Notes under the pieces: generated by a model
Databases searched by the model: none
Told to the model about the DNA's origin: nothing
The model's input: the letters and a program-made list of their open reading frames with translations, nothing else
Translations under genes and position numbers: made by a program
Shown: positions 23,418 through 37,971 of the stretch, piece after piece
How the letters are laid out: the number at the start of each line of letters is the position of its first letter
How positions within the stretch are numbered: the stretch's first letter is position 1
Assembly (NCBI GenBank): GCA_000434175.1
Contig: HF999800.1
Location: 60,947 to 116,462 of the forward strand
Length of the DNA: 55,516 bases
From: Mycoplasma sp. CAG:611
GTDB taxonomy: Bacteria > Bacillota_I > Bacilli_A > RF39 > UBA660
Reading direction: 5' to 3'

Positions 23418-25055
23418 TTATTGTATTTCAACAAAATCTTGACCAAAAAGGTCTAATGCATCTTTTATTGTTTCTTTTGTTTCTATTTCTATTTTATCAT
23501 ATTTTTCTTGTTCTTTTGGTTTTTCAATTAATATTTCTTCTTTATAAGTATATTTTATTCCATTTTTTTTATCCAAAATAAACTTATTTTTTATTGTTTC
23601 CCATTCATCATCTAAAACAAAGGAAACTTTATAATTTTTATTAACAATTAAATAAATTAATGATTCAATTTTTGACACGTTTAATAAAGCATTTTCTAAT
23701 ACAGAATCATATTTAAATGATATAATTACATCTTTTTCTCCAACCACACGAACATTTCCATCAATCAAAAAAGATACAACACTACCAAATTCTTTATTAT
23801 ATAAATAGTCAGATAAGTTTATCCAACATATTTTTAAATCTTCAAGTAGACTTTTATTAGCAAGTGCTAACGCATTATTTATTCTAATTTTATTTAATTC
23901 GAATGTTTGTTCGTTTAGACTATTTGCTTCTTTTATTTCTGTTTTTTCAATATTATTATTTTTTTCTTTTTTTATTTCAATAGGAAATTCCTTTTCTGAA
24001 AAAGTATTTTTCTCTTCAGAAATTTTATTATTTTCTAGCAAAGCTTCAATTTTCAAAAATGAAACCTCTAACAATACTTTTTGATAACTACTATTTTTCA
24101 TATTATTAACTGTATCATTTAAAATATCTATTATTTCAAAAATATCACTTTTGTTTATTTCATATTGTTTATTACTTATTAACATATTTTTTAAATATTC
24201 AATCAACTCAGTCGTAAATAAAATAAAATTTTTTCCTTTTTTTCCTAAATAATCAATTTTATCCAATGCTTCTTTAGTATCGTTTTTAACAAGATAATTA
24301 ATTATATCAGACAATTCCTCTTCTTTTACAATTCCTTTTATTTCATAAAAATCATTTGTTGTAATATTAGTAGAACAACAAGCTAATTTATCAAGTAAAT
24401 TAATTGCATCTCTAAGTCCTCCATCAGAGTATTTTGCAATTAAATTTAAAACTTCTTCCTCTACTTTTATTTTTTCTCTTTCTACGATAAATTTCAATTT
24501 ATTAACAATATCATCTTCACTTATTTTTTCAAAATTAAAGCATTGACATCTTGATATTATAGTTGCAGGAACTTTATATAATTCGGTTGTAGCTAAGATA
24601 AATACAACATGTTGTGGTGGTTCTTCAAGGGTTTTCAATAAAGCGTTAAATGCTCCGATCGAAAGCATATGAACTTCATCTATAATATATACTTTATATT
24701 TTGAAATAGAAGGCATTAATGTAACCTTATCCCTTATTTCTCTTATCTCATCAACACCGTTATTTGAAGCAGCATCCATTTCAATAATATCTGGATGATT
24801 TTTTTCATTAAATGCTATACAACTCGGACATTTTTCACAAGGTTTATCATCTATTGGATTTTCACAATTAAGTAATTTAGCAATTAACTTTGCTATAGTC
24901 GTTTTACCAGTACCTCTAGGACCAGAAAATAAATATGCATGTGATGTCATATGTCTTTCAATAGTATTTTTCAATATTTTTGTTACATATTGTTGGCCTA
25001 CAACTTCTTCAAATGTTTGTGGCCTATATTTTCTATATAATGCAAGATAACTCAT
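23418..25055 (-). CDS. dnaX: DNA polymerase III subunit gamma/tau
   Basis: LYRKYRPQTF start, GPRGTGKTT Walker A, zinc module CEKCPSC, DEVHML, and SRCQ. Confidence 0.95.
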   Translation of the reverse strand: MSYLALYRKYRPQTFEEVVGQQYVTKILKNTIERHMTSHAYLFSGPRGTGKTTIAKLIAKLLNCENPIDDKPCEKCPSCIAFNEKNHPDIIEMDAASNNGVDEIREIRDKVTLMPSISKYKVYIIDEVHMLSIGAFNALLKTLEEPPQHVVFILATTELYKVPATIISRCQCFNFEKISEDDIVNKLKFIVEREKIKVEEEVLNLIAKYSDGGLRDAINLLDKLACCSTNITTNDFYEIKGIVKEEELSDIINYLVKNDTKEALDKIDYLGKKGKNFILFTTELIEYLKNMLISNKQYEINKSDIFEIIDILNDTVNNMKNSSYQKVLLEVSFLKIEALLENNKISEEKNTFSEKEFPIEIKKEKNNNIEKTEIKEANSLNEQTFELNKIRINNALALANKSLLEDLKICWINLSDYLYNKEFGSVVSFLIDGNVRVVGEKDVIISFKYDSVLENALLNVSKIESLIYLIVNKNYKVSFVLDDEWETIKNKFILDKKNGIKYTYKEEILIEKPKEQEKYDKIEIETKETIKDALDLFGQDFVEIQ

Positions 25056-32025: not shown

Positions 32026-32466
32026 TTAATTTTTTCGTTGTTTTGTTATTGTTATTAACTTATTAACTCTTAATAGTTGAGTTTCTATGGACAAGATGGG
32101 CATATTAAACTCAGTTTTTTTATTATTTTTCCATTCTACTACTGTATTTTTTCCTTTTTTCTCATAATTTAAAATATTATTTGACCCTATCCAAACATTT
32201 TTTTCATTTTCAATTGCTGTTGTTGGAAAAAATATTAAATTATTAGTTTCTTCTACCATCACTGGTATTTTATAAACTGAACCTAAAATGCTTCTTGCAC
32301 CATTCATTCTGCCATTTAATGAACTTCCATAATAACTACAACTATTCTCAATTACTTGATATGGTGTTAAATCAACAATATATTCATCATTTAACTCAAG
32401 TATTTTACTTTTTCCTTTTTGATAAGGAATTATAGCTAAAGTATCGCTATTAATTTCATATTCCAT
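32026..32466 (-). CDS. ComK-family transcription factor-like protein (short, 146 aa)
   Basis: TLAIIPY...P.QVIENSCSYYGSSLNGRMNGA.....YKIPVMV....NLIFFPT.......WI parallels B. subtilis ComK (ATIAVLP...PLQIVDRSCRFFGSSYAGRKAGT...HKPPIMV...QIFLFPT...WI). Confidence 0.6.
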   Translation of the reverse strand: MEYEINSDTLAIIPYQKGKSKILELNDEYIVDLTPYQVIENSCSYYGSSLNGRMNGARSILGSVYKIPVMVEETNNLIFFPTTAIENEKNVWIGSNNILNYEKKGKNTVVEWKNNKKTEFNMPILSIETQLLRVNKLITITKQRKN

Positions 32467-32555: not shown

Positions 32556-33674
32556 TTAATATGTTCTAATTGGTAAAATTAATCCAATTAAATCATTATT
32601 ACTACTTTCTCTTAATAAAATAGGTTTTATTTCTCCTACAAAACTAATAATAACATCTTCTGTTGATATTGTTCTTAAAGCATCCATCATATATTTACTA
32701 CTAAATGATATTTTAATATTATCACTACAATTAACTGCTAATTTTTCTTCTACTTTACCTATTTCAAGTGACATAGAAGTAATTTTTAACAAATTATTGT
32801 TAATTTCTAAAGTAATAATGTTATTATCCCTATCATTATTTAATATAGATGCTCTATCAACCATATTATAAAATTCTCTTTTGTTAATTCTTAAATCAAA
32901 TAATGTTTCTTCTGGAATTAAATTAACAGTATTTGGATAACTTCCATTAATTAATCTTGATTGGAAAATAATATTATTAAATTTAAAAATTATTTTATTA
33001 CTGAATATATATATATTTAATATTTCTTCATCTTCATCAAAAAATAATTTTAATAATTCAGTTAAATTTCTACTTGGAATTATAATATTAACATCTTTTG
33101 TTAATACTTTATCCATTTTATATTTCTTAAGAGATAATCTATAAGAATCTGTTGCACTACATTCAAGCATTTCTTTATTTGTTTTTAAATTTAATCCTGT
33201 TAAAACTATTCTTGATTCATCAGTACTTGAAGCATAATTAGTTTGATTTATAATATTTTTAAAATCTTTAATTGATAAACTAATAAAATCATCATTTAAA
33301 CTTAAATCTATTGGGGGATATTCTCTAGCATCAATACCATTTAAATTAAATTCACTATTTTCTGTATAGATAAGTACTTTATAATCATCAACTATTTCCA
33401 TATTAATAAATTCTGAATCTAATTTTCTAATAATATCAATTATATATTTACCTTTTATTACTATACTTCCTGTTTTTAAAATTTCTAAATCTTCACTTTT
33501 TTCTATTTCAGTTTGAATTGTAATATCATTATCTGATGCGGTTAAAATAAGTTTTTCTTTTGTTAAATTAAACTTAATACCTGATAATATAGGTACAATA
33601 TTCTTTGATGATAATGCTTTTGATACATTATTTAATGCTTCGGATAAAACGTTTTTTCTAATTTTTAATTTCAT
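32556..33674 (-). CDS. dnaN: DNA polymerase III subunit beta (sliding clamp)
   Basis: 372 aa with the MKL.I....L......V...V......PIL.GI start, the three-domain clamp length, a C-terminal LPIR motif, and a position after dnaA. Confidence 0.95.
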   Translation of the reverse strand: MKLKIRKNVLSEALNNVSKALSSKNIVPILSGIKFNLTKEKLILTASDNDITIQTEIEKSEDLEILKTGSIVIKGKYIIDIIRKLDSEFINMEIVDDYKVLIYTENSEFNLNGIDAREYPPIDLSLNDDFISLSIKDFKNIINQTNYASSTDESRIVLTGLNLKTNKEMLECSATDSYRLSLKKYKMDKVLTKDVNIIIPSRNLTELLKLFFDEDEEILNIYIFSNKIIFKFNNIIFQSRLINGSYPNTVNLIPEETLFDLRINKREFYNMVDRASILNNDRDNNIITLEINNNLLKITSMSLEIGKVEEKLAVNCSDNIKISFSSKYMMDALRTISTEDVIISFVGEIKPILLRESSNNDLIGLILPIRTY

Positions 33675-33806
33675 AAAAATTCCTTCTTTCTTTTATTTAT
33701 TTATTTTTTTTATTATAGCAGTTAATAACTGTTAATAACTTATTAAAACCTTATATATCAGTACTTTTAGAAGATTTTTTTTAACAATTATTAACTGATA
33801 TTAACA
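33675..33806. other. oriC: oriC, dnaA-dnaN intergenic box cluster
   Basis: Three exact TTATTAAC 8-mers: 33721-33728 and 33731-33738 on the minus strand as a tandem GTTAATAACT repeat, and 33788-33795 on the plus strand. ATATTAACA is at 33798-33806. No canonical TTATCCACA is present. Confidence 0.55.
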
Positions 33807-35180
33807 TTATTTTAATTCTTGTTCTATATGAATAATTGCTTCTTTTAATTCCATGTTACTTTTTAATGAAGTTTCTATTTTATTACAAGAATGCATTACA
33901 GTAGCGTGATTTTTTCCACCAAATTCTATTCCTATTCTTTCAAAAGATTCATTAGTTAATTTACGACATAAATACATTGCTACTTGTCTTGGAATGGCTA
34001 TATTTGGTGGCCTTTTATTAGATTTTATATCTTCATAAGATATTTTATAAAAATTTGCTACACTTTTTTGTATTCTTCTTATATTATTTTGATCTGTACC
34101 ACTTGTTTTTTTAGTAAATTCTTTTAATGCTTCCATTGCAAATTCTAAAGTTGGATTATTAACACCCATAATTACTGAATAAGCAATAAGTCTTGTAATT
34201 GAACCTTCAAGTTGCCTTACATCGTTTCCTACATTTGAAGCAATAAAATTAATAACATCATCATTTATTTTTAACTTTTCTCCATTTAATTTTTTTCTTA
34301 TAATAGCTACTTTTAATTCAAATTCAGGTGGTGCAATATCAACTTGTAAACCCCAACAAAATCTAGTACGAAGTCTATCTTCAAGAAATTTTAAATCATC
34401 TGGTGATCTATCGGATGATACAATTATTTGCTTAGAATCGTTATGCAAATTATTAAATGTATGGAAAAACTCTTGTTGTGATGCTGTTGCTCCCCCAAGA
34501 AATTGAATATCATCTATTATTAATACATCAATATCACGATATTTACTCTTAAAAAATTCCATATAATCTAAATTATTATTGTTAATATTATTTTTTCTTG
34601 ATAATCCCATAAAATCTTCAAGAAATTGATCACAGGTAACATATAAGACACGTTTTTTGTGTTTTTCTTCAATATAATTACCAATTGCATGCATAAGATG
34701 AGTTTTACCAAGTCCACTGTTACCATATATAAATAAAGGATTATACATCTTACCAGGATTTTCTGCTACTGCAAGAGCTGCAGCTTGTGCAAATTTATTT
34801 GATTCGCCTACAACAAATGTATCAAAAGTATAATTTTTATTTAAATTAGAATTAATTGCTTTTTTAGGTTTATATTTATCAACATCATCTTTAGTTTCAG
34901 TTTTTTCTTTTTCTTTATCAAGTATTTCATTAAGATTTTCCTTTAAAATAAAGATAATATCATTTATTTTAAAACTAGAATTGTTATTAAAATTATCTAT
35001 TATTATTTCTTTATAATTTTGTTCAATATGCGTTTTGTAAAGTAAATATGGTACGCATAATCTCAATTTATCATCTTGAATATCAATAAATTCAATATTA
35101 CTAAACCATGTATTAAAAGGAAGAGGATCTATAATATTTTTAATACTTAATAATGTTTTATTCCATATACTATCATTCAT
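33807..35180 (-). CDS. dnaA: chromosomal replication initiator protein DnaA
   Basis: AAA+ motifs GNSGLGKTHL and LIIDDIQFL, sensor motifs, and a domain IV HTH (PRQVAMYL...GGKNHATVMH). Confidence 0.97.
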   Translation of the reverse strand: MNDSIWNKTLLSIKNIIDPLPFNTWFSNIEFIDIQDDKLRLCVPYLLYKTHIEQNYKEIIIDNFNNNSSFKINDIIFILKENLNEILDKEKEKTETKDDVDKYKPKKAINSNLNKNYTFDTFVVGESNKFAQAAALAVAENPGKMYNPLFIYGNSGLGKTHLMHAIGNYIEEKHKKRVLYVTCDQFLEDFMGLSRKNNINNNNLDYMEFFKSKYRDIDVLIIDDIQFLGGATASQQEFFHTFNNLHNDSKQIIVSSDRSPDDLKFLEDRLRTRFCWGLQVDIAPPEFELKVAIIRKKLNGEKLKINDDVINFIASNVGNDVRQLEGSITRLIAYSVIMGVNNPTLEFAMEALKEFTKKTSGTDQNNIRRIQKSVANFYKISYEDIKSNKRPPNIAIPRQVAMYLCRKLTNESFERIGIEFGGKNHATVMHSCNKIETSLKSNMELKEAIIHIEQELK

Positions 35181-35618
35181 ATTATAACCTCCTTCCCCAT
35201 AAGATTTTTTAAGTCAATTTAATTGTAATACATTATTAAAAAAAATAAAATACCCAAACAGAAATTAACTAACTTATTAACATAGTTTTCAACATATAAA
35301 ACCCTTCGTCTATATATAATAAATGACTTTTTAACAAATTTCAAGAAAAAAGTTATTATTTTAATTAACATTATGTTATAAATAAATTGTTAATAACTGT
35401 TAACAATGGTTAATAAATATTAAAATATATATTATATAAGGATAAAATAACTGCAGTTATTAACTAAAATATTGTTAATTTTTAAATATTAATAATTTTT
35501 TATTATAAATTAACTACAGATATTAACTAAAAAAGTTAAAAACTAATTGCTCCGATGAATTGATTATTTATTTAATCCATGATATATTAAAAATATAAAA
35601 ATAATGAGGTAAAGAATT
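35181..35618. other. oriC: oriC, dnaA-upstream box cluster and AT-rich region at the strand-switch point
   Basis: The coding strand switches here. Four exact TTATTAAC 8-mers (35274-35281 plus strand, 35389-35396 minus, 35409-35416 minus, 35457-35464 plus) and at least 6 one-mismatch variants are present, along with the palindrome ATAACTGCAGTTAT (35445-35460). An almost pure A/T stretch spans 35417-35445. Confidence 0.6.
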
Positions 35619-36566
35619 ATGAAATTAAAATTTAATAAATACATACTAATACCAATTTTAATAATTACAGGATTAATTGTTATATCTTTTTATAACTTTT
35701 ATAAACCATATTATAAATTTATTGATGATTATAATACAATAAAAGAAAATTGCTATGAAAAAAAGAATGTTAATCACTATGTTTGTAAATTACCATATTA
35801 TCAAGATGAAAATAATTTAAAACATTTTATTGAAAATAATGACCCATATAAAAAATTAAATGAACTTGATTTATATACTGTTTATAATAGCATTGTTGAA
35901 AATGAAACTTATAGTGTTCTTCAATTTTTATCTCCCCTTCTTATTATGATTATGGTTGTGGGGACACTTCATCAAGAGTATTCAAGTGGAATGTTAAAAA
36001 ATTATTTGACAAGACAAAGTTATAAATCGTACTTAAAGGATAAATATAAATTTATATTAACTATTTCTTTAATTATACCTATTTCTCTTATCGTAATATT
36101 GTTAGTTTCTGGAATATTAACAGGATTTAATACAAAAATAGCAAGTAGTGTTTACTCTATCGCGGTTTATAGTGAATTTAAGTATAATCATTTCTTTATG
36201 TATTTTATAGGATTTTTATTTATTACTTATTTTATGAGTGTTTTTTATGCCAATATTGGATTATTTTGTGTTAAAAAAACAAAAAATACAACTCTTGCTA
36301 TAATTATGGGATATATCTTATTTTTAATTATAGACATTATTATTTATGTAGTTATATACGCGTTTATCTTATATAAATTTTTAAATTTAAATGTTTCTGA
36401 AGAAATATTTAATATAACAGGATACTTTTTTACTGATACTAAGATTAATTTATTAAAAATGTTATTAGTTTCCTTTATTTTGCAGGGATTATCTACATTT
36501 ATTTTATATAAATTTTATCAAAATAAGCAGGAGGTAATAGAAAATAGTGAAAAACAAAACGCATAA
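35619..36566 (+). CDS. ABC-2 type transporter permease-like membrane protein
   Basis: N-terminal TM, a ~80-aa loop, then about 5 TM helices. The HQEYSSGMLKNYLTRQS motif resembles ABC-2 / lantibiotic-immunity-type permeases. Confidence 0.55.
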   Translation: MKLKFNKYILIPILIITGLIVISFYNFYKPYYKFIDDYNTIKENCYEKKNVNHYVCKLPYYQDENNLKHFIENNDPYKKLNELDLYTVYNSIVENETYSVLQFLSPLLIMIMVVGTLHQEYSSGMLKNYLTRQSYKSYLKDKYKFILTISLIIPISLIVILLVSGILTGFNTKIASSVYSIAVYSEFKYNHFFMYFIGFLFITYFMSVFYANIGLFCVKKTKNTTLAIIMGYILFLIIDIIIYVVIYAFILYKFLNLNVSEEIFNITGYFFTDTKINLLKMLLVSFILQGLSTFILYKFYQNKQEVIENSEKQNA

Positions 36567-37971
36567 TACTTATCAAATATTAAATTATTTTGCTTCAACT
36601 GATAGATATAAAATAATTTTAATTTTAACAATTATTCTTTGTTTATATGGAAGTTTTGCTCTTGGACTTAATACAACATTTTCTTCTTCTGTACTTAATA
36701 CTTTTATGTTCGATATTTTTAATATATTTATGTTTTTAATATTATTTATTAATACTCTTAATATATGTACAACTTTTGATAATGAATTTTCTTTTTATAT
36801 AATAAGATTAAATAATAAAAAAAGATACATAAAAGAATTATTAAAAAATGTTTTAATATTTAATATCTTACATTTAACCATCTTTTTTCTTATATATTTT
36901 ACAATTAAATGCTTTCTGACATATGAACCTGGAAGTTATACATTATATCAAAACTATAATATAACAAACAATTTATATTTAATATTCTATTTAGGAAGAT
37001 ACATAATTTTAAGTTTATTATTTTGTCTAATTGAAAGTTTAATTTATATTAATTTTAAAACAAAAATAGTTTGTATATTTAACTCATTATTTATCATGGG
37101 ATTTTTACTTTCAAGTTCAAGTGATATGATTTATAATAAATTTTTAATTTTTCCTTGGAGTTATTTTAATAATATAAAATATAGTTCATTTTCTATGGAA
37201 GTTTTATATTCATGTATTTATATATTAATTTTATTAATAATATCACTTTTATTATATAAGTTTATTTTAAAAAAGAATAAAAATATAAATAATATAAGAT
37301 ATATTTTCTTTACTGACATTTTGTATTTGTTAAAAAAAAGAAAAAGAATTTTGTTATTATTTTTACTATTTCCAATTGTTACAACATTTATAAATGTAAA
37401 TATGGATTTATCTTTTATAAGTATTGTAAATACTTCAATGGGAACTAATATTATATTAAAAGAATCTGGTCCACTTGAAATATGTATGTATTTACTAAAT
37501 ATTGGAATAATAGCTTTTTTAATAACGGATTTATTTATAAGAGATATTAAATATAGTTTAGATAATATATTTTTAAGAACAAATATGTTAACATGGTTTA
37601 TTGATAAAGTCATTATATTTTTAATTTTTAGTTTTATTTTAAAAATATTGCAATACGTTTTAGTAGTTATAATTTTATTAATAAATAATAAAGTGTTTGA
37701 TAGTAATATTATTAATTTAATGTTAGCAGATTATTTTTACACATCTTTAGTAGGATTCATTTTCTTATTAATGTATATTTTATTTATTACATTAAATAAA
37801 ACAAAATTTTTACCTATAATAGGTGGAATACTTTTAATTATTGTGCTACCTAAAAGTATTTGGAGTTTAAAATGTTATATAATTTACATGATAGTTATAT
37901 TAATATTAATAATTACTATAATAAGTAAAATAATTAAGAATAAAAATAAAAAAATATTTGAAAATTTATAA
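36547..37971 (+). CDS. large polytopic membrane protein, probable second ABC-2 permease
   Basis: GTG start overlapping the upstream gene by 20 nt. At least 10 hydrophobic helices appear to form two permease-like halves. Confidence 0.5.
   Translation: MKNKTHNTYQILNYFASTDRYKIILILTIILCLYGSFALGLNTTFSSSVLNTFMFDIFNIFMFLILFINTLNICTTFDNEFSFYIIRLNNKKRYIKELLKNVLIFNILHLTIFFLIYFTIKCFLTYEPGSYTLYQNYNITNNLYLIFYLGRYIILSLLFCLIESLIYINFKTKIVCIFNSLFIMGFLLSSSSDMIYNKFLIFPWSYFNNIKYSSFSMEVLYSCIYILILLIISLLLYKFILKKNKNINNIRYIFFTDILYLLKKRKRILLLFLLFPIVTTFINVNMDLSFISIVNTSMGTNIILKESGPLEICMYLLNIGIIAFLITDLFIRDIKYSLDNIFLRTNMLTWFIDKVIIFLIFSFILKILQYVLVVIILLINNKVFDSNIINLMLADYFYTSLVGFIFLLMYILFITLNKTKFLPIIGGILLIIVLPKSIWSLKCYIIYMIVILILIITIISKIIKNKNKKIFENL

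Follow-up and report, generated by a model that had tools for sequence, protein, structure and literature searches.

In a 55,516-nucleotide stretch of the genome of Mycoplasma sp. CAG:611 (contig HF999800.1, positions 60,947 to 116,462; called the window throughout), the initiator protein DnaA and the DnaA boxes of its replication origin (oriC) both depart from the canonical pair, and the comparison with related genomes makes it probable that the reading surface of the protein and the boxes changed specificity together. Few protein–DNA pairs of bacteria are as conserved as DnaA and its 9-mer box. In the window, base-contacting residues of domain IV are replaced, and the boxes read TTATTAACA, which differs from the canonical box TTATCCACA only at the adjacent positions 5 and 6, TA being found instead of CC. 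The residue substitutions, the box clusters, their positional homology with known boxes and the phylogenetic co-occurrence of both changes were directly observed. Which base each residue touches, and which sequence the protein prefers to bind, are suggested by general rules of amino acid/base recognition and by the pattern across the whole family. An earlier note, made from the window alone, had proposed that initiator specificity has shifted together with its sites, and this proposal is supported by the comparison of 24 genomes with the same helix, which trace back to three origins.

The last 100 residues of the window DnaA were aligned with HMMER to the crystal chain of E. coli domain IV (1J1V_A). 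There were no gaps across the DNA-binding region, and an alignment to B. subtilis DnaA (8BTG), which is the closest solved relative (6e-109), was likewise gap-free across the motif. Relative to E. coli, the start of the recognition helix carries the substitutions R432K, D433N, T435A and L438M (the residues 432–435 are abbreviated K-N-H-A in the following). The helix sequence and the residue numbering, which the earlier note had reconstructed by hand (R399, H434 and H439 kept; P423E, R432K, D433N and T435A changed), proved to be identical with the minus-strand translation and the gap-free alignment.

According to two papers (PMC2533591 and PMC7561715, citing Fujikawa 2003), the base-specific contacts in the 1J1V complex are made by R399, P423, D433, H434, T435 and H439, and these residues are said to be conserved in Firmicutes including B. 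subtilis. The contact list given in the earlier note agrees with these sources, which include R399 as well. In a review (PMC5742627), the 5' TTA of the box is allotted to R399 and its 3' part, TnCACA, to the helix that starts at residue 434. In the window DnaA, R399, H434 and H439 are kept, whereas P423E, D433N and T435A are changed; half of the six contact positions are thus replaced and the canonical contact set is not conserved. The counterpart of R399, which reads the TTA part from the minor groove, lies in a column that is at least 90% conserved in our alignment A1. None of the 120 nearest database homologues, whose identity goes down to 72%, departs from KNHAT, and the Pfam domain Bac_DnaA_C has one match in the whole genome (G000; 96% complete, 0.93 Mb), namely the dnaA of the window. 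An invariant motif in the sole DnaA of a genome argues that the variant is real and under selection and is neither a sequencing error nor the mark of a pseudogene. The positions of all elements are given in Table 1.

Table 1. Elements of the initiator gene and the origin in the window
Feature	Position in window	Strand	Remarks
dnaN (beta clamp)	32556..33674	(-)	directly downstream of dnaA; from the list of open reading frames (ORFs)
dnaA-dnaN spacer	33675..33806	.	six TTATTAACA-like sites, <=1 mismatch
Tandem pair TTATTAACAgTTATTAACT	33720-33738	(-)	in dnaA-dnaN spacer
dnaA	33807..35180	(-)	457-amino-acid ORF; Pfam DnaA_N 7e-09, Bac_DnaA 6.7e-65, Bac_DnaA_C 1.2e-29
Start of recognition helix (helix 5, domain IV)	33891..33920	(-)	GGKNHATVMH = E. 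coli G430-H439
Glu codon at E. coli P423 position (helix 4 contact)	33939..33941	(-)	'sferig' vs 'slpeig'
Arg = E. coli R399, kept	34011..34013	(-)	'snkrpp' vs 'skrrsr'; coordinate from ORF residue 390
dnaA-upstream part of oriC	35181..35618	.	nine TTATTAACA-like sites, <=1 mismatch
Head-to-tail array TTATTAACC/TTGTTAACA/TTATTAACA	35388-35416	(-)	10-bp period; in dnaA-upstream oriC

A cluster of boxes of the type TTATNCACA was not found at this origin: the 1 kb flanking the window dnaA contains no T[AT]TCCAC site versus 15 T[ATG]TTAAC sites. When the whole genome was ranked, the two 500-bp segments densest in exact TTATTAAC were the dnaA-dnaN spacer and the region upstream of dnaA. For TTATTAACA with up to one mismatch, the seven highest-ranking 500-bp segments are without exception located upstream of dnaA, at 10 sites per 500 bp versus about 1.2 expected. 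No cluster of canonical boxes was found anywhere in the genome, in which the 12 exact copies of TTATCCACA are unclustered. The outer positions around the variant core (T1 56-64%, T2 76-84%, A3 65-76%, A9 56-82%) can be set beside those around TCCAC in canonical genomes (T1 62%, T2 83%, A3 72%, A9 87%). Apparent clusters of TTATNCACA with up to one mismatch at C55:27.7 kb and C32:49.8 kb were rejected, as they consist of scattered one-mismatch matches within genes.

The basal unwinding system of B. subtilis is made up of the tandem boxes 6 and 7, a spacer and the DnaA-trios (PMC8287927). By this description, such a module consists of two tandem boxes separated by no more than 3 bp, a short spacer, three or more (.A.) trinucleotides and an AT-rich tract before dnaN. 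In the window, the tandem pair TTATTAACAgTTATTAACT is followed by gc, then by TAT AAT AAA AAA AAT, an AT-rich run and the ribosome-binding site of dnaN. This layout resembles that of the basal unwinding system, but its boxes are of the variant type, and (.A.) trios are nearly automatic at about 20% guanine plus cytosine (GC). The TTATTAACA pair occupies the position of B. subtilis boxes 6 and 7 and adjoins the trios. Canonical Bacillota that we sampled have TTATCCACA-TATTCACA-spacer-TAC TAG TAC in the same slot. Relatives from the family of the source organism have box-G-TAATAAT, in which the box is T[AT]TCCACA, T[AT]TCAACA, TATTCACA, TATCGACA or TATTAACA and follows each genome's own box type. 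Of all arguments for the TTATTAACA elements being DnaA boxes, this positional homology with boxes 6 and 7 is the strongest.

We considered whether the TTATTAACA repeats could instead be sites of another origin-binding factor or structural AT-rich elements, the true boxes being other or very degenerate sequences. In favour of this, TTATTAACA is rich in A and T, and its exact copies are not confined to oriC, the window as a whole having 19 versus 5 expected. The chance of this explanation is nevertheless very remote: TTATTAACA sits in the exact slot of boxes 6 and 7 by the trios with the canonical flanking positions kept, it departs from the canonical box at no more than two adjacent positions, the dinucleotide in the slot tracks residues 433 and 435 family-wide, and no other repeated motif was found in the dnaA flanks. 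As to the copies away from oriC, three exact TTATTAACA lie within about 870 bp at 23638-24507 (at 23638, 24176 and 24499); they may be a secondary DnaA-box cluster or an effect of composition.

The source organism belongs to a very large family of uncultured Bacilli that comprises no fewer than 237 genus-level groups. Its genomes measure about 0.8-1.5 Mb, the GC content of the loci is about 23-25%, and the records come from human, Hadza, goat and cattle gut. K-N-H-A-T was present in 18 of the 401 family genomes sampled (10 of 214 genera), and asparagine 433 combined with serine or threonine 435 in a further 31 genomes from 20 genera. D433N is found in 12% of this family. Elsewhere, one of 18 further families of the class had asparagine 433, whereas it did not occur among about 56 loci of other Bacillota and other phyla, which had been retrieved with a pattern allowing D or N. 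In the solved structures of DnaA (E. coli, B. subtilis, Aquifex and M. tuberculosis), the helix has D-H-T throughout. By these counts, D433N is to be regarded as a rare and informative change of the helix. R432K, on the other hand, is often seen alongside canonical boxes and is probably neutral for box specificity. In the literature, the Asp-His pair at residues 433-434 counts as nearly invariant.

Box types were assigned from the counts of T[AT]TNNACA in the 700 bp upstream and the 300 bp downstream of dnaA, using a Markov background trained on the flanks. As a control for the typing, CC was the top class almost everywhere in canonical Bacillota, and almost all of about 70 other Bacillota with [RK]DH[ST] have kept TTATCCACA. 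Among the 24 K-N-H-A genomes, the top dinucleotide at positions 5 and 6 was TA in 22 and CA in two and never CC; each has 0-1 T[AT]TCCAC versus 7-24 T[ATG]TTAAC sites in the 1 kb of dnaA flanks. K-N-H-A together with ordinary TTATCCACA boxes, which would speak against a joint change, was not encountered in any of them. When the dominant dinucleotide was tabulated against residues 433 and 435 (Table 2), CC was the top type in 20 of 34 genomes with D433 versus one of 41 with N433.

Table 2. Dominant dinucleotide at box positions 5 and 6 and DnaA residues 433/435, for family genomes with at least 4 sites
Residues 433/435	Number of genomes by dinucleotide
D/T	CC 8, TA 1, TC 1
D/S	CC 12, CA 9, AA 1, TC 1
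D/A	TC 1
N/A	TA 20, CA 2
N/S	CA 5, GA 1, TA 1
N/T	GC 6, CA 2, CC 1, GA 1, TA 1
E/S	GA 1
T/S	GA 1

We also noted the dominant box of the dnaA flanks genus by genus. Across L038-L094 and L215-L234 it is TT[AT]TCCACA, TTATCAACA, TTATTAACA, TTATTCACA, T[AT]TGCACA or T[AT]TGAACA, and its type tracks DnaA residues 423, 433 and 435. Two single cases are L046, in which an R-E-H-S helix occurs with TTATGAACA, and L086, in which a K-T-H-S helix occurs with TTTTGAACA.

A maximum-likelihood tree was calculated from DnaA domains I-III, domain IV being left out. K-N-H-A appears in three separate, well-supported clades. Clade A comprises 19 rows including the source genus and has E or Q at residue 423; the genomes sister to it, P423/K-N-H-S and P423/K-N-H-T, carry TTATCAACA boxes. 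Clade B, in which residue 423 is L or V, is neighboured by T423/K-D-H-A/T genomes with TTATTCACA boxes and by R-D-H-T genomes with mixed CC/TA boxes. Apart from these residues its domain IV is like that of the neighbours, indicating that the domain was inherited vertically and not transferred. Clade C has E423, K-N-H-A and C438, and its boxes are TTATCAACA plus TTATTAACA. Each of the three origins goes with A at box position 6 and with the loss of CC, and the sister lineages are graded: P423 with K-N-H-S/T goes with CA boxes, T423 with K-D-H-A/T goes with TC boxes.

By parsimony there were three changes to K-N-H-A and three to TA-type boxes, two of which coincide. As there are only three origins of K-N-H-A, paired sign tests cannot reach significance, and a coincidence test weighted by branch length was used in their place. 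The three K-N-H-A stems make up 2.8% of the tree length, and the probability that at least two of the three TA origins fall there by chance is about 0.002.

Several observations weigh against a joint change of specificity. The phylogenetically independent pairs number three for K-N-H-A and five well-supported ones for N433. Clade C favours TTATCAACA, and the D433/S435 lineages L055, L059, L087, L091 and L092 use TTATCAACA as well, so the code is not one-to-one. N433 combined with T435 is mostly paired with T[AT]TGCACA; N433 consequently does not always go with A6. At the window origin itself, the background trained on the flanks gives a modest enrichment (6 sites observed versus 1.2 expected), TTATTAACA is compositionally easy in a genome of 23% GC, and logos anchored on TTAAC, though they resemble the canonical flanks, look similar when taken inside coding DNA of the same AT-rich genome. 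The statistical weight lies on the genome-wide ranking and on the relatives, which have up to 21 sites. Finally, L044 and L078 carry CA/TA boxes at the unwinding module although their R-D-H-T helix is fully canonical, and the canonical Clostridia L104 and L118 hold 5-6 TATTAACA sites alongside CC boxes, which implies that an unmodified DnaA may tolerate TATTAACA as a weak site.

These last cases bear on a second explanation, mutational drift with a tolerant initiator. According to it, extreme AT pressure eroded the two cytosines of the boxes, binding relies mainly on R399, H434 and H439 and on cooperative oligomerisation, and the helix changes are neutral or mildly tuning, with no switch of specificity. 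Besides L044 and L078, drift is favoured by the many D433 lineages with TTATCAACA and by the indifference of E. coli DnaA to position 5 (consensus TTATNCACA; PMC5043019). It is also favoured by L040, L077 and L118 (a Terrisporobacter metagenome-assembled genome), which, like L044, have a canonical R-D-H-T/S helix and TATTAACA as the box next to the trios, their remaining boxes being of the CC type. TATTAACA may be an ancestral low-affinity box.

Against drift, the loss of CC boxes is complete rather than partial in 24 of 24 K-N-H-A genomes, and the exact 9-mer is kept in 9-24 copies across 10 genera. The helix is moreover invariant in the 120 homologues and arose convergently three times. Base composition argues in the same direction, since the loci of TA-type genomes (23.3 ± 1.6% GC) scarcely differ from those of CC-type relatives (24.8 ± 2.1%), and other families of Bacilli at 22-29% GC have kept both the D-H residues and CC boxes. 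AT-richness as the sole cause was rejected on these grounds, and drift as a whole appears unlikely to us.

A third explanation is that specificity was weakened in the course of genome reduction, oriC being recognised mostly by the shape of AT-rich DNA and the repeats being leftovers. The genome is small (0.93 Mb), and in E. coli the mutation T435M damages specific binding (PMC5742627). Against it, the sequence and copy number of the 9-mer are strongly conserved across genera, head-to-tail arrays have a 10-bp period, and the same residue set recurs convergently with the same box. We regard this explanation as most improbable.

Returning to a joint change of protein and boxes, the following mechanism can be proposed. 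With R399, H434 and H439 kept, the reading surface would have been re-tuned at the start of the recognition helix and in helix 4 by D433N, T435A and P423E. Asp433 is probably a hydrogen-bond acceptor from the amino group of C6. Asparagine is a classic adenine reader, and Asn433 could accept from N6 and donate to N7 of an adenine, which would lock in A6 and disfavour C6. As adenine also offers an amino group in the major groove, lineages with D433, especially those with the smaller Ser435, would be able to tolerate TTATCAACA. The loss of the Thr435 side chain together with the replacement of P423 may accommodate or select T at position 5. The earlier note had regarded both differing positions as read by this helix. 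Given that E. coli DnaA does not read position 5, the critical change of the box would be that from C6 to A. The TTATTAACA tandem pair beside dnaN would then nucleate unwinding.

The sites would have changed first and the protein afterwards. Under very low GC, weak AT-rich variants would have pre-existed as secondary boxes; this order is suggested by the AT-rich secondary boxes that are found next to the trios in the canonical L040, L044, L077 and L118. The optimum of the protein would then have moved stepwise to the AT-rich boxes, with K-N-H-S/T, P423 and CA (TTATCAACA) boxes as the intermediate. The presumed end state is K-N-H-A with E, L, V or Q at residue 423 and TA boxes, the C-containing boxes having been lost.

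The pattern in the family may extend further than the window. With a chance a little short of even, the family has re-coded its DnaA-box specificity repeatedly, with at least six types (CC, CA, TA, TC, GC and GA) tracking residues 423, 433 and 435. A joint code, which we put forward equally tentatively, might be read as follows: D/T at 433/435 specifies CC, D/S specifies CC or CA, N/S specifies CA, N/A specifies TA, N/T specifies GC, and E433 or T433 with S435 specifies GA. K-N-H-A with TTATTAACA could in such a code, and with the same reserve, be one end point that was reached convergently three times. If true, the way in which the universal bacterial initiator recognises its boxes could be read as a code, and initiator and origin would diverge fast enough for origin incompatibility between neighbouring genera.

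With the DnaA and TTATCCACA box of E. coli and B. subtilis (1J1V; 8BTG), the window pair shares the protein family, the helix-turn-helix domain, the box length, the outer box positions TTAT..ACA, the residues R399, H434 and H439 and a dnaA-dnaN origin with a module of tandem boxes and trios, which is putative in the window. It differs by P423E, D433N and T435A, by TA instead of CC at box positions 5 and 6 and by a genome that has no canonical cluster.

In Epsilonproteobacteria the helix-5 residues K432, S435, S438 and K439 have been proposed to underlie a requirement for T5, and the residue pair 433/434 has been described as highly conserved (Jaworski et al. 2016, PMC5043019). In both cases substitutions in helix 5 go along with a changed box, and K432, a residue other than threonine at 435 and T at box position 5 are common to them. 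The epsilonproteobacterial protein keeps D433-H434 and has S435, S438 and K439, and its box keeps C6 (T[CT]ATTCACA). In contrast, the window DnaA has N433, A435 and M438 and keeps H439, and position 6 of its box is A. The epsilonproteobacterial pair is backed by footprinting, whereas the window pair is known from sequence comparison.

Pereyre et al. 2009 (PMC2751442) put forward the 9-mer itself, TTATTAACA, as DnaA box of the region upstream of dnaA in Mycoplasma hominis, M. arthritidis and M. mobile, which are likewise very AT-rich, reduced Bacilli. There, one or two copies were reported and the protein side was not analysed; the window origin has at least 15 sites with up to one mismatch plus a matching change of the protein. 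In our sample of 61 Mycoplasmatales genomes, in which dnaA stands at the start of the contig, the DnaA helices are mostly [KR]DH[TS]T. Two members of the sample deviate in other ways. Of L205 (G434) and L213 (G471), one has a DnaA reading ..GGRNSSTVM.., without the otherwise invariant H434, and the other has ..FSRNHSTIM.., in which N433 is preceded by a deletion of one residue.

The contact residues are also divergent in Thermotoga maritima DnaA (PDB 2Z4R; ..NRSHPVV..), which goes with a non-canonical 12-mer box. The Thermotoga box is of another length and another sequence and goes back to an ancient divergence, whereas the change described here is recent, concerns two adjacent base pairs and has intermediates within one family. 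The literature that we searched gave no description of a D433N/T435A DnaA or of the origins of this family.

A lineage that is common in human and animal guts thus has both sides of the DnaA-box pair changed, with intermediates and convergent replicates among its relatives. This offers a testable hypothesis as to which residues set specificity at box positions 5 and 6, and the natural variants could serve to engineer orthogonal initiator/origin pairs. Programs for finding origins look for TTATCCACA; with the boxes changed, standard origin prediction fails in these genomes.

The dnaA ORF of the window has the expected DnaA architecture, DnaA_N, Bac_DnaA and Bac_DnaA_C all exceeding the curated Pfam cut-offs. 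Its Walker A P-loop reads GNSGLGKTHL, and G156, G158, K159, T160 and H161 are invariant in alignment A1. On the minus strand the gene order is dnaA, dnaN, a ComK-like gene and recF, and the genes upstream of dnaA lie on the plus strand. The order dnaA, dnaN, (ComK-like gene), recF is typical of an origin region. The cumulative GC skew has its minimum at about 36 kb of the window and, together with the switch of the coding strand and the dnaA-dnaN synteny, places the origin at dnaA. On the evidence of its domains, its single occurrence and its location, we take this dnaA to encode the single chromosomal initiator of the organism.

Some further features of the surroundings were noted. The ComK-family protein between dnaN and recF (146 amino acids; 32026-32466, minus strand; Pfam ComK 8.8e-36) takes the place that is usually held in Bacillota by yaaA, a small S4-domain gene. 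Immediately upstream of oriC, at 35619-37971 on the plus strand, there are two long, very hydrophobic ORFs of 315 and 474 amino acids, the first of them without a Pfam match; in many Bacillota the divergent neighbour of dnaA at this position is rpmH. Finally, a 0.9-Mb genome from a different family of the same order (G037) has two full-length DnaA paralogues at loci L067 and L068. Their helices are divergent (..GGKDHSTVIK.. and ..GGRDHSTIKY..), and a third domain IV fragment lies at a contig end.

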